A program made the position numbers and the translations under genes. The notes beneath the pieces are model-generated. The model was not told where the DNA came from, searched no databases, and saw only the letters and a list, made by a program, of their open reading frames with translations. This document shows positions 3,762 to 35,770 of a stretch of 64,000 nucleotides of DNA, piece by piece. The number at the start of each line of letters is the position of its first letter. Position 1 is the stretch's first letter. The DNA comes from a virus, in IMG/VR virus record IMGVR_UViG_3300049783_001607. One strand, given 5' to 3'.

Positions 3762-4442
3762 TTATTCAATTTTTAATATATTTCCATTGCTACTTAATTT
3801 ACCGAATTTACCGTCAGTTAATACACTTCCATTACTAAATATAGTTTTATATTCGGATAATTTAGTTGTACCAGCATTAATAATATCTACATTATTATGA
3901 ACGTGTCCAAATAAACACAGATCAGGTTGTATTTTAAGCATTCTCTTTTTAAGAGCGCTACAACCACACATTTCTACAGAATGATTAGTATTATAAGATA
4001 AATCTAATACTCCTTTAGGTGGTCCATGGACGATTACTATTCTAGTATTTTCTGGTATTTGTTGCCAAACTTTATCTAACTTAGATCTATTTTTCATGAA
4101 ATACCAATTGCCGAATTGAGGTGTATGAGGACTCCCCCATATTTTAATACCTTCAATAATAACAGATTCATTTTCTAAATAATCGATTGAATATTCTTTA
4201 CATAACTTTTTAAATTCTCTACTTCTATGAAATGGCACAGCATCGTGATTACCTGCAATTAATACTTTATGTTTTATAGGTAAGCAAGCGTACCAGTTTA
4301 AAAAATCTCTAGTTTCAATCTCGTTTGTATATAGTTCATAATAATTACTAAAATCTCCCGAATGTATTACTAAATCTATATTTTCAGGAATTTCTAATAA
4401 ATTATGATAACTGTGAGTATCTCCTATATGCCAAATGTTCAT
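3762..4442 (-). CDS. Calcineurin-like metallophosphoesterase
   Basis: Motifs GDTH, HSGD, AGNHD, HGPP, FGHVH in canonical order. Confidence 0.92.
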   Translation of the reverse strand: MNIWHIGDTHSYHNLLEIPENIDLVIHSGDFSNYYELYTNEIETRDFLNWYACLPIKHKVLIAGNHDAVPFHRSREFKKLCKEYSIDYLENESVIIEGIKIWGSPHTPQFGNWYFMKNRSKLDKVWQQIPENTRIVIVHGPPKGVLDLSYNTNHSVEMCGCSALKKRMLKIQPDLCLFGHVHNNVDIINAGTTKLSEYKTIFSNGSVLTDGKFGKLSSNGNILKIE

Positions 4443-6954: not shown

Positions 6955-7222
6955 AAACTCTTTGACCCAAAATTCAGTTATGGGATATTGTTTTTACACT
7001 AGTAACTTCGGTTTCGAACCGACTACTTCCCTTTGATGGACTAGCACAATACATCTACAATATTTAATACCCTTTCGGGAACACAACTGCTGATACAGTT
7101 TAATAACATAATAGCGTTACTGCCATCGCCTAATACCGTCTTTTCGCATTTAAAGTACGTGTAGCAATCATCAGATTTATTATATTTAACATGTTATTGT
7201 TTATCTTCAATTCAAAGAGTTT
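6955..7222 (-). ncRNA. Structured ncRNA candidate, motif B copy 1
   Basis: Closed by aaactctttg/caaagagttt; conserved acccaaaattcagttatggga hairpin and actgctgatacagttt block. Confidence 0.65.
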
Positions 7223-7225
7223 AAT

Positions 7226-7969
7226 TTATAAGTTTTCTTTAATCCAGTTAAGAATCTTAGATGAGCTTCCTTCTATTAAATGTTCTTCTAGAGCATACTT
7301 TTTTATTAATATTTTAACTTCTTTTGCATTATAAATTTTATTTTCTACAGAAGTAATATTAACAGTGTTGTCTTGATTTAGTTTAATAATAGCTATGGGG
7401 TAATGCTCACAGTTTTCTTGACATTCACTTTCGTAAATGTGAGATTTACCGCAACATGAAGTAGTCATATACTCAACTTCAAACTTTCCATCAGGATTAG
7501 CAATAAACTCTTTTAATAATGATTGTTGTAGTTGAGGTAGTAATACAGGGTTATAAATATTATTTATTTCATCTTTACCAATTACAGTCTTTTTCTGCAC
7601 AAGCTTAGTGTTAGTACTTGCTATTACTTTTTTAATATTTGGTATGTTTCTTTCCCAAGGTGTAGTTACGCTTCCATCTCCAATATTTCTAGGCAAAGTG
7701 ACAAAACATTCTTTACCGTACACATTTTTAATTATACCTAATCCAAATGTTTTATGTATTGCATAATCACCTTTTTTAATAGGTTCTACATCTTGAGATA
7801 CTGTTGCGTATAAGTATTGTGATACCCCACCTATATCTTTCACAGCTCTTAGATTATCAACCCTATCTTTAACGCTATTAGTATAAAAAGGGTCTAGACC
7901 TGTGCTATGTAATACAATACCTGTTATGTCTTCTGTTGGTAGCATGACTACTTTTATTCTATGTTTCAT
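7226..7969 (-). CDS. Conserved-block/hypervariable paralog family protein
   Basis: All six family blocks present. Confidence 0.85.
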   Translation of the reverse strand: MKHRIKVVMLPTEDITGIVLHSTGLDPFYTNSVKDRVDNLRAVKDIGGVSQYLYATVSQDVEPIKKGDYAIHKTFGLGIIKNVYGKECFVTLPRNIGDGSVTTPWERNIPNIKKVIASTNTKLVQKKTVIGKDEINNIYNPVLLPQLQQSLLKEFIANPDGKFEVEYMTTSCCGKSHIYESECQENCEHYPIAIIKLNQDNTVNITSVENKIYNAKEVKILIKKYALEEHLIEGSSSKILNWIKENL

Positions 7970-11281: not shown

Positions 11282-11803
11282 TTAAAATCCTAAATAAGCT
11301 AATTCAGAAGCAAAATCTTCATAAACAACTAAATTTTGTTTGTAATTATCGTTATCTAGTTCTACAAAATTAAAATTTTTACTGATGTCTGTAATAGTTT
11401 TCATACTTTCACTAACATCAATCCCAGTTTCTTTTTCAATTATTTTTAAACAGTATAAAAACTGATCTACATTACCCGTTCTTAAATAATCTATACCTTT
11501 TTCAAATGTAAATAAAGTACTATGACTTATACCAAAATTTATTTCTTTAGCTCTCCTACCTCTGTTATATATATTATCGAGAGTAAATGGTTTATCCATA
11601 AGCTCACATAAAGTATTAGTAGCAGCACAACCATAGCACACATCTTTTTTAATTAACCCAAAAAAATAAGATTTTTGTTCTATTTCTCCAAAAGTATTCA
11701 TGTTTATTTCAACCCACTTTTTTCTTATTCCTGCTACCATAGCAAATATAATACTAGAAACTGAGTCTATGTTTTCAAATATCCCTTTATTTTCACTTTT
11801 CAT
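11282..11803 (-). CDS. CxGCAATNTLC tandem-array paralog
   Basis: CYGCAATNTLCELM motif. Confidence 0.85.
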   Translation of the reverse strand: MKSENKGIFENIDSVSSIIFAMVAGIRKKWVEINMNTFGEIEQKSYFFGLIKKDVCYGCAATNTLCELMDKPFTLDNIYNRGRRAKEINFGISHSTLFTFEKGIDYLRTGNVDQFLYCLKIIEKETGIDVSESMKTITDISKNFNFVELDNDNYKQNLVVYEDFASELAYLGF

Positions 11804-11828
11804 TTTTTATACTATTTATAGTTATTGA

Positions 11829-12317
11829 TTAATGACCTGTTGATTTTAATAGTAAGGCAAGATTTTCATAATTAATTAAACCTGTTTTAAAATCATCATC
11901 TTGTAATATTGGTAAATAAAATCCCTGTGAAATTTTTAAAATAGCTCCTATATCAACAGAAATACCTATTTCTTTTTTTAATCCTGATAAAGAATGTACA
12001 AATTCATCTACATCCCCTTGTCTAAGCCTGTCTAAAGCACGTTCAAATCTCATTAAAGTATTTTTAGATATTCCAAAATTTATTTTATCAACCCTTTTAC
12101 TTAAACTTGATATATTACTTGCATTAAAAGGTTCTCCCATTAATTGACACAAAGTATTAGTAGCAGCACAACCATAGCATATTTTTTGTGAGCTTACGTC
12201 TCCATAGGTTTGCATTGCAACTCTTACCCACTCCTTTTTTAGTCCTTCTGTCATAGCTAATATTACGTCAGAAACTGAGTTTATATTTTCAAATAAACCT
12301 GTATATTTTTTAGTCAT
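11829..12317 (-). CDS. CxGCAATNTLC tandem-array paralog
   Basis: CYGCAATNTLCQLM motif. Confidence 0.85.
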   Translation of the reverse strand: MTKKYTGLFENINSVSDVILAMTEGLKKEWVRVAMQTYGDVSSQKICYGCAATNTLCQLMGEPFNASNISSLSKRVDKINFGISKNTLMRFERALDRLRQGDVDEFVHSLSGLKKEIGISVDIGAILKISQGFYLPILQDDDFKTGLINYENLALLLKSTGH

Positions 12318-12340
12318 GTTATAGTATTTTTAATGTTGAA

Positions 12341-12838
12341 TTAATAGCCTTCTTTTTTTAATTCCGTGCCAAATTTTTTATAGTAATGCAAATTTGCTTT
12401 AAAATTTTTATCATTTAAAGAAGGTAATTGAAATAAAGCGCTGAATAACATGATTTTTTCAAATTGAGTAACAAATCCCAATTCGTTTTCTAAAACGGTA
12501 GTATAAGATAAAAATTCAATTATAGATCCTTGTCTAAGCTTATCTACAGCACGTTCAAATCTCATTAAAGTTTCTTCAGATATTCCAAAATTTATTTCTA
12601 TAGCCCTGCCTTCTAAACTATTTATGTGGCTAGACTTAAAAGGTTTTCCCATCAATTCACATAAAGTATTAGTAGCAGCACAACCATAGCATGTTGTATT
12701 TTTATTACCCATTGTTGACGCACCAAAAGTGTACATTTTAACATTTACCCATTCTTTTTCCAACCCTGCTACCATGGCTAGTATTATGTCAGAGACTGAA
12801 TGTATGTTTTCAAATAAACCTGTATATTTTTTATTCAT
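12341..12838 (-). CDS. CxGCAATNTLC tandem-array paralog
   Basis: CYGCAATNTLCELM motif. Confidence 0.85.
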   Translation of the reverse strand: MNKKYTGLFENIHSVSDIILAMVAGLEKEWVNVKMYTFGASTMGNKNTTCYGCAATNTLCELMGKPFKSSHINSLEGRAIEINFGISEETLMRFERAVDKLRQGSIIEFLSYTTVLENELGFVTQFEKIMLFSALFQLPSLNDKNFKANLHYYKKFGTELKKEGY

Positions 12839-12856
12839 TTCGTAATATTTATAGTG

Positions 12857-13345
12857 TTAATAACCGTTTTGTTTTAATTCATTTGCGAATTGCTCATAAT
12901 AAATTAAATCCGTTTTATAATTTGAATTTTCTAGTCTAGGTAAATTAAAGTCTATATAAATAGATTTAATTTTTTTTAATTCTACAACGAAACCAATTTC
13001 TTCTTCAATCTCTGATAACGCCTCTAAAAATGTTATTATACATCCTTTTCTAAGGCTATCTATACACTCTTCAAACATTCTTAAATTTCCTGAAGATATC
13101 CCAAAATTTACTTGTTCTGCTCTCCGGTCTAAATTTATTATATTACTTGCATTAAATGGTTTATCCATTAATTGACACAAGGTATTAGTAGCCGCACAAC
13201 CGAAACATATTTTATCAGTAGTTACACCTCCATAAGTATTCATATCAACTTCAACCCATTCTTTTTTTAATCCTTTTATCATTGAAAATATAATATCTGA
13301 AACTGAATTTATTTTACTGAATATTCCTTTTTGTATTGCAGCCAT
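12857..13345 (-). CDS. CxGCAATNTLC tandem-array paralog
   Basis: CFGCAATNTLCQLM motif. Confidence 0.85.
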   Translation of the reverse strand: MAAIQKGIFSKINSVSDIIFSMIKGLKKEWVEVDMNTYGGVTTDKICFGCAATNTLCQLMDKPFNASNIINLDRRAEQVNFGISSGNLRMFEECIDSLRKGCIITFLEALSEIEEEIGFVVELKKIKSIYIDFNLPRLENSNYKTDLIYYEQFANELKQNGY

Positions 13346-13368
13346 TTTGTAATATTTTTAATGTTAGA

Positions 13369-13857
13369 TTAAAGTCCTTCTTTTTTTAATGCACTCGCTA
13401 ATTGCTCATAATAAATTAAATTCGTTTTATAATTTGAGTTTTCTAATTTTGGCAAATTAAATTCCATACAAATAGACTTGATTTTTTCTTCTTCTATAAC
13501 AAAACCAATTTCGTCTTCGAGGCTTGATAAGTAAAGTAAAAATGTTATTATACATCCTGTTCTCAAGTTATCTATAGATACTTCAAACCGTCTTAAAGTA
13601 TGTGTAGATATCCCAAAATTTACCTCTTTTGCTCTTTCGTGTAAACCTATTATATTATCTACAGTAAATGGTTTATCCATTAATTGACATAAAGTATTTG
13701 TAGCAGCGCAGCCAAAACATACTTCATCATCAGTTACACTTCCAAAAGTATCCATATCAACTTCTACCCATTCTTTTTTTAAACCGTGTATCATAGCAAA
13801 TATAATATCTGAAACGGAGTTTATGTTCTTAAATATCCCTGTTTGTATTTTATCCAT
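13369..13857 (-). CDS. CxGCAATNTLC tandem-array paralog
   Basis: CFGCAATNTLCQLM motif. Confidence 0.85.
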   Translation of the reverse strand: MDKIQTGIFKNINSVSDIIFAMIHGLKKEWVEVDMDTFGSVTDDEVCFGCAATNTLCQLMDKPFTVDNIIGLHERAKEVNFGISTHTLRRFEVSIDNLRTGCIITFLLYLSSLEDEIGFVIEEEKIKSICMEFNLPKLENSNYKTNLIYYEQLASALKKEGL

Positions 13858-13879
13858 TTGTAATATTTTTAATGTTAAA

Positions 13880-14365
13880 TTAAAGCCCTTCTTTTTTTAA
13901 TTCAGCAGCAATTTTTTCATAGAAATGCAGATTTTTTTTATAATCGTCAGTATCTAATTCTGGTAAATTAATTTTATTCATAATGCTGATAAGTCTGTCC
14001 GTTTCAATTTTTATACCGATTTCTTTTTCAATTTCTATTAAATGATGTATAAATTCCCTACTTCTTCCTAGTCTTAAATTATCTAAAGACATTTCAAATA
14101 CTTTTAAAGTGTACCAATCAATTCCAAAATTTACTTTTTCACGTCTACTTTTTAGGTTGTTTATATTACTTGCATTAAAAGGTTCTCCCATTAATTGACA
14201 CAAAGTATTAGTAGCAGCGCAACCGAAACATACTTTTTTATATACAGCTCCATAAGTTTGCATATCAATTTTTACCCACTCTTTTTTTAATCCCTCTGTC
14301 ATAGCTAGTATTATGTCTGAGACTGAATTTATTTTACTGAATATACCTGTTTGTATTGTATTCAT
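13880..14365 (-). CDS. CxGCAATNTLC tandem-array paralog
   Basis: CFGCAATNTLCQLM motif. Confidence 0.85.
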   Translation of the reverse strand: MNTIQTGIFSKINSVSDIILAMTEGLKKEWVKIDMQTYGAVYKKVCFGCAATNTLCQLMGEPFNASNINNLKSRREKVNFGIDWYTLKVFEMSLDNLRLGRSREFIHHLIEIEKEIGIKIETDRLISIMNKINLPELDTDDYKKNLHFYEKIAAELKKEGL

Positions 14366-14388
14366 ATTGTAATATTTTTAATGTTAGA

Positions 14389-14874
14389 TTAAAGCCCTTC
14401 TTTTTTTAATGCTTCTGCAAATACTTCGTAATGTCGTAAATTGATTTTATAATTTTCATTAGTTAATATTGGTAAATAAACTTTATCCGCAATAACCATA
14501 ATTTTTTCTTCTTCGATTTTTATACCAGTCTTTTTCTCAATTTGTTCTAAACAGTATAAAAAATCTTCAGTTCTTGCTTCTCTTAAATGATCTAAACCCA
14601 TTTCAAAGTTTCCTAAAGTATGGCTATCAATCCCAAAATTTACTTTTTTACGTCTGGATTGTAGGCTAATTATATTATTTTCATTAAAAGGCTCTCCCAT
14701 CAACTCACATAAAGTATTAGTAGCTGCACATCCAAAACATAGATTATTTTCTTCATATCCGTAACTTTGCATATCAACATTTACCCATTCTTTTTCTAAG
14801 CCTCGGATCATTGTAAATATTATGTCAGAAACTGAATTTATTTTACTGAATATGTTTTCTTGTATTGTATCCAT
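14389..14874 (-). CDS. CxGCAATNTLC tandem-array paralog
   Basis: CFGCAATNTLCELM motif. Confidence 0.85.
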   Translation of the reverse strand: MDTIQENIFSKINSVSDIIFTMIRGLEKEWVNVDMQSYGYEENNLCFGCAATNTLCELMGEPFNENNIISLQSRRKKVNFGIDSHTLGNFEMGLDHLREARTEDFLYCLEQIEKKTGIKIEEEKIMVIADKVYLPILTNENYKINLRHYEVFAEALKKEGL

Positions 14875-14902
14875 TCTGTAATTATTTTTTTTTAGTGTTA
14901 GA

Positions 14903-15412
14903 TTAATACCCTTCTTTTTTTAAGTCTAAAGCAAATTCTTTATAGATAGGCAGATATTCTTTAAAATCTTCATTGTATAATATTGGTAAATGATATGTGC
15001 TGCTAAAGCATAAGATTTCTTCAACTTTTACAGCAAACCCTAGTTCTTTTTCTAGTGCTTTTATATGCGATAAAAACCAGTCTATATCTCCCACTCTTAA
15101 CTTATCTACTCCTTGTTCAAATCTATATACAACATCTGAAGGGATACCAAAATTTACTAGAGAAGCTCTTTCTTCTACGCTGTGTATATTACTGGAATCA
15201 AAAGGTTTTCCCATCAATTGACATAGAGTATTAGTAGCTGCACATCCAAAACACATATTTTTTTCATTAGCTATTGTCTCACCAAACCTTGTTGTACCAT
15301 AGGTTTCCATATCAACATTTACCCATTCTTTTTCTAAGCCTGCTACCATAGCAAATATAATATCTGAAATTGAGTGCACATCTTCAAATAAACCTGTATA
15401 TTTTTTATTCAT
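14903..15412 (-). CDS. CxGCAATNTLC tandem-array paralog
   Basis: CFGCAATNTLCQLM motif. Confidence 0.85.
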   Translation of the reverse strand: MNKKYTGLFEDVHSISDIIFAMVAGLEKEWVNVDMETYGTTRFGETIANEKNMCFGCAATNTLCQLMGKPFDSSNIHSVEERASLVNFGIPSDVVYRFEQGVDKLRVGDIDWFLSHIKALEKELGFAVKVEEILCFSSTYHLPILYNEDFKEYLPIYKEFALDLKKEGY

Positions 15413-30725: not shown

Positions 30726-30854
30726 ACTTCAAAGGTAACAATTAAAAATTAAAGTAGTATCTTTATAGAAAGAAATACTTTGCGCCAACCGGGCATGTAT
30801 CGCTACCTTCTCGTTGGACACTATAGCCTCTATTTATTTAGAGGCTATTTTTTG

Positions 30855-30930
30855 TGGGATGAGTAAGAATCGAACTTACGCAATGTCGCTGGGCTTCAAC
30901 CAACCGCTCTACCAACTGAGCTATCACCCC
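30855..30930 (-). tRNA. tRNA-Phe(GAA)
   Basis: Cloverleaf; anticodon loop TTGAAGC. Confidence 0.92.
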
Positions 30931-30940
30931 ATTATTTTTG

Positions 30941-31014
30941 CGCGGCCGGAGAGACTCGAACTCCCGACACCTGGTTTTGGAGACCAGTGCTCTGGCCAAC
31001 TGAGCTACACCCGC
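30941..31014 (-). tRNA. tRNA-Trp(CCA)
   Basis: ctggt-CTCCAAA-accag. Confidence 0.93.
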
Positions 31015-31025
31015 ATTTATTATTG

Positions 31026-31099
31026 AACGTCTGATGGGACTCGAACCCATGATCTTTCAGATTTGCAGTCTTTTTCCTTAGCCGCTCGGACACAGACGT
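31026..31099 (-). tRNA. tRNA-Cys(GCA)
   Basis: Loop CTGCAAA, U73. Confidence 0.9.
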
Positions 31100-31111
31100 A
31101 TTTAATAATAG

Positions 31112-31186
31112 CTCCTTAGGTTGGACTCGAACCAACAACCCCCGCATTAACAGTGCGATGCTCTAACCAGTTATAGCTACTAAGGA
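31112..31186 (-). tRNA. tRNA-Asn(GTT)
   Basis: tcgca-CTGTTAA-tgcgg. Confidence 0.93.
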
Positions 31187-31325
31187 ATATTTATATATTT
31201 GTAAACATAAAGCCAGTTCATATGAGGCTACAGAAACATCATCTATATCTTTAGCCCAAGTAACTATACCGTTAGGTAACACCACTTTTAAAAACCCGTC
31301 TTCTTGTTTAGTTATAATCATATTG

Positions 31326-31499: not shown

Positions 31500-31504
31500 A
31501 ATTG

Positions 31505-31594
31505 TGGGAATGATAGGATTCGAACCTATAATGGGGTCTTTCAACACCTACAGATTTACAGTCTGCTCGCTTCAGCCAATTTGCATACACGCCC
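31505..31594 (-). tRNA. tRNA-Tyr(GTA)
   Basis: gcaga-CTGTAAA-tctgt, long variable arm. Confidence 0.92.
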
Positions 31595-31604
31595 GATTTA
31601 AAAC

Positions 31605-31636
31605 AAAAAAAAAGACCCATTAATTAAAATGAGCCT
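31605..31636 (-). terminator. Attenuator terminator of tRNA operon C
   Basis: AGGCUCAUU/AAUGGGUCU stem plus long U tract, about 10 nt before tRNA-Tyr. Confidence 0.85.
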
Positions 31637-31661
31637 CTAGTTTGGTTGTATATTTTCTTAA

Positions 31662-31736
31662 TTACCCAAATAGCTCATCTGATCCGTTATAAAACGAATT
31701 ACAGAAATTACTATATGACCAACTTGTTACTTTCAC
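31662..31736 (-). CDS. Leader peptide C, MKVTSWSYSNFCNSFYNGSDELFG (GTG start)
   Basis: 13 consecutive codons for Ser/Trp/Tyr/Asn/Phe/Cys, the tRNAs downstream. Confidence 0.88.
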   Translation of the reverse strand: MKVTSWSYSNFCNSFYNGSDELFG

Positions 31737-31758
31737 TGTATTATTATTATTTAAGATG

Positions 31759-31766
31759 CAAATGTA
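31759..31766 (-). promoter_or_regulatory. -7 promoter element of tRNA operon C
   Basis: TACATTTG matches Bacteroidota TAnnTTTG. Confidence 0.8.
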
Positions 31767-32427: not shown

Positions 32428-32505
32428 TGGTCCTGGAGTGAATCGAACACTCATGTGACCTAGTTACGATTTCAACTGATTATGAGTCAGAGCCGATACA
32501 GGACC
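32428..32505 (-). tRNA. Atypical tRNA(CAT), probable Ile2 (lysidine), lacking a D-arm
   Basis: Perfect GGTCCTG/CAGGACC acceptor, GAGTG-TTCGATT-CACTC T-arm, ctga-CTCATAA-tcag. Confidence 0.7.
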
Positions 32506-32513
32506 TTAATTAG

Positions 32514-34589: not shown

Positions 34590-34621
34590 AAAAAAAGCTC
34601 CTATCTTTCGAAAGGAGCTTT
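34590..34621 (-). terminator. Attenuator terminator of tRNA operon B
   Basis: AAAGCUCCU/AGGAGCUUU stem, GAAA loop, U tract, 2 nt before tRNA-Ala. Confidence 0.88.
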
Positions 34622-34643
34622 ATGTTGTTTGTAATGTTTTAAA

Positions 34644-34724
34644 TTATCCACATATAACGTCCTTCCAAAGAGCTTGATCTCTCCCTGTTTTAACCGTAAC
34701 CGCTATGTTCATAATTGTTTTCAT
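34644..34724 (-). CDS. Leader peptide B, MKTIMNIAVTVKTGRDQALWKDVICG
   Basis: 15 of first 16 codons read by the 11 downstream tRNAs. Confidence 0.88.
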   Translation of the reverse strand: MKTIMNIAVTVKTGRDQALWKDVICG

Positions 34725-34755
34725 TGAAAATTGTTCTTTTTTTTACTATTGGTTG

Positions 34756-34763
34756 CAAATGTA
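34756..34763 (-). promoter_or_regulatory. -7 promoter element of tRNA operon B
   Basis: TACATTTG. Confidence 0.8.
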
Positions 34764-35600: not shown

Positions 35601-35615
35601 AATTTATTATAAACT

Positions 35616-35645
35616 AAAAAAACCTTCTAAATTAATAGAAGGTTT
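35616..35645 (-). terminator. Attenuator terminator of tRNA operon A
   Basis: AAACCUUCUA/UAGAAGGUUU stem plus U tract, 15 nt before tRNA-Pro. Confidence 0.88.
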
Positions 35646-35674
35646 CTTTATGTGTTTAATTATGACAGTTAAAT

Positions 35675-35758
35675 TCAGCCAAGATCGAGTACAAGATTCC
35701 TTCCATTGATTAACAACGGTTGTTCCAGTAATTCGATATGACGTAATGATCTGTTCAT
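35675..35758 (-). CDS. Leader peptide A, MNRSLRHIELLEQPLLINGRNLVLDLG
   Basis: 11 of codons 5-16 read by the 7 downstream tRNAs. Confidence 0.88.
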   Translation of the reverse strand: MNRSLRHIELLEQPLLINGRNLVLDLG

Positions 35759-35762
35759 ATTG

Positions 35763-35770
35763 CAAATATA
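35763..35770 (-). promoter_or_regulatory. -7 promoter element of tRNA operon A
   Basis: TATATTTG 4 nt before leader ATG. Confidence 0.8.

Follow-up and report, generated by a model that had tools for sequence, protein, structure and literature searches.

Phage segment and tRNA gene array

The window, meaning the whole 64 kb stretch of DNA that was analysed, is a phage segment with a GC content of 30% that carries genes for a large terminase and a portal protein as well as divergent gene blocks. Its source is a crAss-like phage from sea-ice samples. The large terminase (TerL) is 24-27% identical to those of crAss-like phages of Bacteroides, Flavobacterium and Cellulophaga, and homologues of window proteins adjoin crAss ring and muzzle genes on other contigs. 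The same phage has also been assembled as contigs of about 163 kb and is present in ice metagenomes, and a search for RNA runs that contain the tRNA region returned none; a search of the phage collection by DNA or by TerL returned no close cultured relative. Elsewhere in the window, positions 11282-15412 (-) hold eight tandem paralogous ORFs of 161-173 aa with a mutual identity of 42-70%.

The minus strand between 30854 and 35600 is occupied by 24 tRNA genes and one odd CAT tRNA-like gene, which jointly represent all 20 amino acids. These genes follow three upstream units, A, B and C, each composed of a promoter box, a short leader ORF and a terminator (Table 1). Unit A stands before the genes for Pro, Glu, Gln, His, Leu, Leu and Arg(acg), and unit B before those for Ala, Lys, Ile, Gly, Met, Met, Asp, Thr, Val and Arg(tct) and the CAT tRNA-like gene. 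Units A and B together cover 14 amino acids, and the set is completed by the seven genes of unit C. A scan of the whole window for a box, a short ORF and a T run recovered only A, B and C with a hairpin of -10 kcal/mol or stronger. The units also sort roughly by the first base of the codons read: unit C corresponds to U-first codons plus AAY/AGY, unit A to C-first codons plus GAR and UUR, and unit B to A- and G-first codons.

Table 1. Coordinates of unit C, its sister units and its counterparts in two related phages
Feature	Coordinates	Strand	Details
-7 promoter box of unit C	31759..31766	-	TACATTTG; Bacteroidota type; assigned by conservation and position
Leader ORF C	31662..31736	-	24 codons, GTG start, TAA stop
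Regulatory run	31686..31724	-	codons 5-17; 13 consecutive Ser/Trp/Tyr/Asn/Phe/Cys codons
Segment 1, leader hairpin 5' arm	31710..31724	-	pairs with 31674-31660 (MFE, free transcript)
Segment 2, antiterminator 5' strand	31666..31680	-	ends 2 nt before stop codon
Segment 3, antiterminator 3' strand = terminator 5' arm	31627..31640	-	92% paired in three sequences
Intrinsic terminator C	31605..31638	-	hairpin 31638-31611, -10.8 kcal/mol; T9 31613-31605
tRNA-Tyr(gta)	31504..31594	-	first gene after terminator C, start 10 nt past T run
tRNA-Ser(tga)	31499-31416	-	relaxed ARAGORN
tRNA-Ser(gct)	31410-31325	-	relaxed ARAGORN
tRNA-Asn(gtt), Cys(gca), Trp(cca), Phe(gaa)	30854..31186	-	last genes of the tRNA block
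Unit A	35615..35770	-	box 35770-35763, leader ORF 35758-35675, terminator 35650-35615
Unit B	34594..34763	-	box 34763-34756, leader ORF 34724-34644, terminator about 34621-34594
L002 leader C	4031..3957		24 codons, ATG-AAA start; run CSYSNYNFWS (10 codons); hairpin + T8
L012 leader C	7271..7200		23 codons, ATG-AAA start; run CSYNNFSSWSF (11 codons); hairpin as in L002

Leader ORF and codon run

Codons 5-17 of leader ORF C read SWSYSNFCNSFYN, and the amino acids that they specify are exactly the six carried by the seven downstream tRNAs. No codon of the run lies outside the decoding range of these tRNAs. Both Ser codon boxes (AGY and UCN) are used, while Trp and Cys are represented by one codon each, from which a weak response to these two amino acids is predicted. 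The first-pass annotation had pointed to 13 consecutive codons restricted to the tRNA-matched set, and this was confirmed at 31724-31686, where the run proved to be the longest for the six-amino-acid set in all six frames of the window (the next longest have 12 and 10 codons). The set makes up about 30% of all-frame codons in the window. A run of 13 is indeed improbable: the probability of at least 13 such codons in a 23-codon ORF ranges from 1e-7 to 2e-4 for p = 0.25-0.45, depending on the assumed background. Based on the empirical rate in the window, the chance of a long run falling on the right strand within the 240 nt upstream of the tRNA block is about 0.002-0.01.

The correspondence extends to all three leaders. 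When leader codons were cross-tabulated against the three tRNA sets, the 3x3 table contained 14/8/4, 2/20/3 and 2/6/15 (chi2 = 38, p = 1e-7).

Promoter box

The -7 element of Bacteroidota promoters has the consensus TAnnTTTG. A TAYATTT(G/A) box that fits this consensus lies upstream of all leaders in the window and its relatives (12/12), and these boxes resemble those found before tRNA-Val genes on Flavobacteriia-like contigs. The support for the box comes from its conservation and position, because the general motif TANNTTTG by itself is not enriched in the window. Such a host-type box implies that the leaders would be transcribed by the host polymerase, an enzyme that recognises intrinsic terminators. 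The gap between the T run of unit C and tRNA-Tyr is too short for a separate promoter.

The spacing between box and leader differs among the units. Unit A leaders start 4-5 nt after the -7 box (window 35758-35770 (-); also L001, L002, L010, L012, L081 and L083), and in units B and C the spacing is 16-41 nt. The short spacing suggests that unit A mRNAs may be leaderless or near-leaderless.

Conservation in related phages

Variants of unit C were found in two related phages: L002, an IMG/VR contig, and L012, a 162.9 kb JGI contig. The neighbouring DnaD-like proteins of these two share 82% and 60% identity, respectively, with that of the window. The seven tRNAs of unit C occur in identical order in all three phages. 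The start position of the leader is aligned, with GTG in the window or ATG in the relatives followed by AAA, and each ORF is closed by a stop codon. The order of the codons within the run differs across the three phages and the amino-acid set is kept, including the single Trp and Cys, although a naive count overstates the improbability of this retention because the set-C codons (UNY, UGG, AAY, AGY) are mutational neighbours. The two Ser tRNA genes of the window were detected only when the ARAGORN threshold was relaxed; their L012 orthologues were both found at the default threshold.

In one relative, L012, leader codon content tracks tRNA gene content. This phage is without Leu(taa), Arg(acg) and Lys(ttt). 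In its leader A, all Leu codons are CUN, CGN codons are absent and there are two Pro codons beside two Pro genes; the core of its leader B is without Lys or Arg codons. The absence of Arg(tct) from L012 unit B is uncertain, since the syntenic place of this gene is taken by a 187-nt tRNA-like gene (7411-7597 (-)) with an acceptor and a T arm and an insertion of about 110 nt, possibly an intron.

In L012, the unit C terminator lies directly 5' of tRNA-Tyr. HNH endonuclease genes are inserted inside the tRNA units of both relatives (L002 3357-3806 (-); L012 8527-8988 (-)), and the L002 insertion is located between the unit C terminator and tRNA-Tyr. The terminator hairpin of L002 and L012 is nearly identical to tRNA-gene terminators on dozens of Flavobacteriia-like marine contigs (L017-L077), and one of these, L024, has three copies of it within 166-nt tandem repeats. 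A metagenome scan for this terminator returned 61 loci, nearly all situated after tRNA genes, mostly tRNA-Val, on Flavobacteriia-like contigs; the only phage among them were L046 and L049, both of which match L002.

Contigs with DnaD-like homologues mostly end at the tRNA block and gave no further unit C variants; homologues of the 496/814-aa downstream protein belong to the structural module of other crAss-like phages, where the surroundings contain no tRNAs. A gapped leader plus T-run pattern run against viral contigs gave two matches, both due to chance, and a tRNA-Tyr pattern search matched an unrelated phage without the leader-attenuator design.

Terminator, antiterminator and folding

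The free unit C transcript folds into a leader hairpin, formed by segments 1 and 2, and the terminator. Across four DNA runs, strain variation consists of identical copies and one variant with a terminator T run shorter by 2. In equilibrium folding, the terminator has a probability of about 1 at every ribosome position, which rules out a purely thermodynamic switch; because the terminator always wins at equilibrium, a switch in unit C must be kinetic.

Antiterminator folding was carried out on transcripts cut before the terminator 3' arm, with the ribosome footprint placed on the leader. With the ribosomal A site at codons 4-16, positions 31680-31666 are freed and pair with 31640-31627, so that a ribosome stalled in the run leaves 9-12 bases of the terminator 5' arm paired with segment 2. 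From codon 17 through the stop codon this pairing is lost, and at the stop codon the ribosome covers segment 2. The zone of permissive stalls therefore coincides with the codon run. The same stall-dependent pairing holds in L002 and L012.

The gain in pairing energy is -9.0 kcal/mol in the window, -8.3 in L002 and -10.1 in L012, values reached by a fraction of 0.017, 0.033 and 0.003 of shuffled sequences, respectively; the terminators of the two relatives have -14.8 (L002) and -13.6 kcal/mol (L012). For the window, 300 dinucleotide shuffles gave a mean of -2.9 +/- 2.0, and shuffle means were about -3 kcal/mol overall. The antiterminators of units A and B are stronger than that of unit C, at -6.5 to -18 kcal/mol, and are reached by 0-1 of 200 shuffles; that of unit A in the window has a gain of -11.9 kcal/mol (0/200).

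In a sequence-only MAFFT alignment of the three unit C variants, the antiterminator helix has nine pairs, is 92% paired and includes three compensatory pairs, compared with 0-1 in slid controls; this covariation is thin, since three variants represent in effect two lineages. The terminator and segment 2 of the window both diverge from those of the relatives, with GAUGAGC in segment 2 versus GCGGGAY. The pairing of GAUGAGC and its flank with the terminator 5' arm that had been drawn from the sequence was recovered by folding, in a slightly different register: the folded antiterminator is a continuous helix with one bulge, and it overlaps the main part of the original drawing.

Probable ribosome-mediated attenuation and its alternatives

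Taken together, the anatomy, the conservation, the codon-to-anticodon match and the covariation of unit C form the observed basis for reading it as a transcription attenuator of the ribosome-mediated (leader-peptide) type that controls seven phage tRNA genes, a reading to which we assign a probability of about 0.8. In silico, the promoter box, the conserved start, the codon/anticodon match, the terminator and the antiterminator covariation all uphold the initial proposal of a leader-peptide attenuator. We infer that leader ORF C is translated, that ribosome and polymerase are coupled, and that slow decoding of the run codons probably turns the matching tRNA block on.

According to this model, the host RNA polymerase would initiate at the host-type promoter and transcribe the 24-codon leader, with a ribosome translating the leader behind the advancing polymerase. 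Quick reading of the Ser, Trp, Tyr, Asn, Phe and Cys codons would bring the ribosome to the stop codon, where it would cover segment 2; the terminator hairpin would then form, and transcription would end 10 nt before tRNA-Tyr. If a charged tRNA were scarce, the corresponding codon would be read slowly and the ribosome would stall on segment 1, leaving segment 2 available to capture the terminator 5' arm ahead of synthesis of the 3' arm. The resulting antiterminator would permit read-through, and the seven tRNAs would be made and then released by RNase P and other host enzymes. The net effect would be negative feedback on decoding capacity for the codon group of unit C, and units A and B would exert equivalent feedback for the other 14 amino acids. 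Points that speak against attenuation include the dominance of the terminator at equilibrium, the weak response predicted for Trp and Cys, the GTG start of leader C in the window, and the prospect that amino-acid starvation would also trigger read-through, which would then be futile.

The alternative that survives best, although it is improbable, is that the hairpin is a constitutive leaky terminator that only damps transcription into the tRNA block or insulates the block from it, next to an unrelated small ORF that encodes a small protein or is untranslated and whose composition is a by-product of RNA structure and AT-richness. The dominance of the terminator at equilibrium is in keeping with this explanation, as are the frequent occurrence of the L002/L012 hairpin as a terminator of tRNA-Val genes on Flavobacteriia-like contigs and the U/A-rich, mutationally adjacent nature of the set-C codons. 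However, it does not account for the way in which each of the three leaders fits the tRNA set behind it, nor for the shift in leader codons that accompanies the altered tRNA gene content of L012. It likewise leaves unexplained why segment 2 covaries with the terminator arm, and why the run ends exactly at the limit of the stalls that permit antitermination.

Slightly less probable still is that translation of the leader matters by another route, through exposure of a Rho or RNase site or through 5' processing of the tRNA precursor. The codon match argues for sensing by the ribosome and says nothing of the output step, and the unit C antiterminators are only moderately stable, both of which would fit such a route. 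It is harder to reconcile with a canonical hairpin and T9 placed exactly between leader and tRNA, and with an alternative pairing that is conserved with compensatory changes.

A ribosome-free RNA sensor, in which the codon run binds the anticodons of uncharged tRNAs in the manner of a multi-specifier T-box, would likewise link tRNA status to a choice between terminator and antiterminator, but it is very unlikely given that no T-box or other riboswitch was matched in Rfam at E up to 1-10, that the start codon, stop codon and ORF length are conserved, and that the stop codon adjoins segment 2. Chance, in the form of an AT-rich spacer that happens to read as Ser/Tyr/Asn/Phe-rich in one frame, can be dismissed almost entirely: runs of 8-12 such codons are also present at other places in the window, most of them antisense to genes, but the feature has the low expected rate upstream of the tRNA block given above, is found again in two relatives, and has counterparts in two sister units, each with a set of its own.

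Relation to known regulatory systems

Leader-peptide attenuation is a textbook mechanism, and multivalent leader-peptide attenuators operate in enterobacterial amino-acid operons, as exemplified by ilvL of ilvGMEDA and by thrL. Like these, unit C combines a short ORF, in which a codon run specifies several amino acids, with three mutually exclusive structures (leader hairpin, antiterminator and intrinsic terminator), and its stop codon adjoins segment 2. Unlike these, it would gate tRNA genes and not biosynthetic enzymes, with one run sensing six amino acids; its carrier is a phage, its promoter is of the Bacteroidota type, and it lacks a Shine-Dalgarno sequence. The classical targets of attenuators, namely genes for amino-acid biosynthesis, transport or aminoacyl-tRNA synthetases, are thus replaced by seven tRNA genes.

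Attenuation of pheST is a precedent for control of a translation component, in which a synthetase is gated through Phe codons only. The closest Rfam model to unit C is Phe_leader (RF01859; pheA/pheST), which aligns over its full length with 26.9 bits for L012 unit C and 14.9 for the window; neither comes near the gathering score of 55, and unit C is therefore not a Phe_leader member. Among Phe_leader, Trp_leader, His_leader, Leu_leader and Thr_leader, none was matched at its gathering threshold.

T-boxes bind uncharged tRNA directly and need neither a ribosome nor an ORF. What they have in common with unit C is that, ahead of genes related to translation, the status of tRNA decides between terminator and antiterminator. 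The T-box covariance model gave no match in the unit C region at E up to 10.

In mycobacteria, leaderless polycysteine short ORFs are reported to act as Cys-responsive attenuators (bioRxiv 10.1101/834739). They share with the unit A leaders a short regulatory ORF at or near the 5' end of the transcript, and they differ in having operonic protein genes as targets, in responding to a single amino acid and in belonging to another phylum. In a full-text literature search, leader-peptide attenuation of tRNA genes, or in phages, was not found described. What is new in the system is that the target is tRNA genes, that the carrier is a phage, and that three sensors divide the code between them.

Possible role during infection

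The three attenuators might jointly act as a phage-borne tRNA homeostat, in which slow decoding of a given codon group would be the sole condition for switching on the corresponding block; this extension is tentative and rather less likely than not. Candidate triggers are a host tRNA pool that is unfit for the codon use of the phage, or the cutting or depletion of host tRNAs during infection, for example by anticodon nucleases. If the homeostat were true, the tRNA set for 20 amino acids would be an inducible replacement kit and thus a form of counter-defence.

If the attenuators are real, phages would regulate tRNA genes via direct ribosome feedback, with one codon group assigned to each sensor. 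This would explain in functional terms why the tRNA genes of phage clusters are ordered and grouped as they are, and would supply a simple rule by which tRNA content may be predicted from the leader, and vice versa. It would also bear on why large phages carry tRNAs, whether for codon supply or for defence evasion. Leaders of this type could further serve as compact, naturally occurring sensors that report how fast defined codon sets are decoded.

Additional features of the tRNA block

The CAT tRNA-like gene at 32428-32512 (-) was missed by ARAGORN and Rfam. Its anticodon loop carries CAT, its acceptor stem has 7 bp and its T arm is normal, but its D arm is odd and its extra region long. It is syntenic with tRNA-Met(cat) of L002 (4993-4921).

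Between tRNA-Ser(gct) and tRNA-Asn, the window contains about 140 nt (31187-31324 (-)) with a small ORF; this stretch is absent from L002 and L012, as the Ser(gct) and Asn genes are adjacent there. Directly after tRNA-Phe lies a hairpin (30823-30848) with a T run on the plus strand only, which would therefore stop antisense and not sense transcription.
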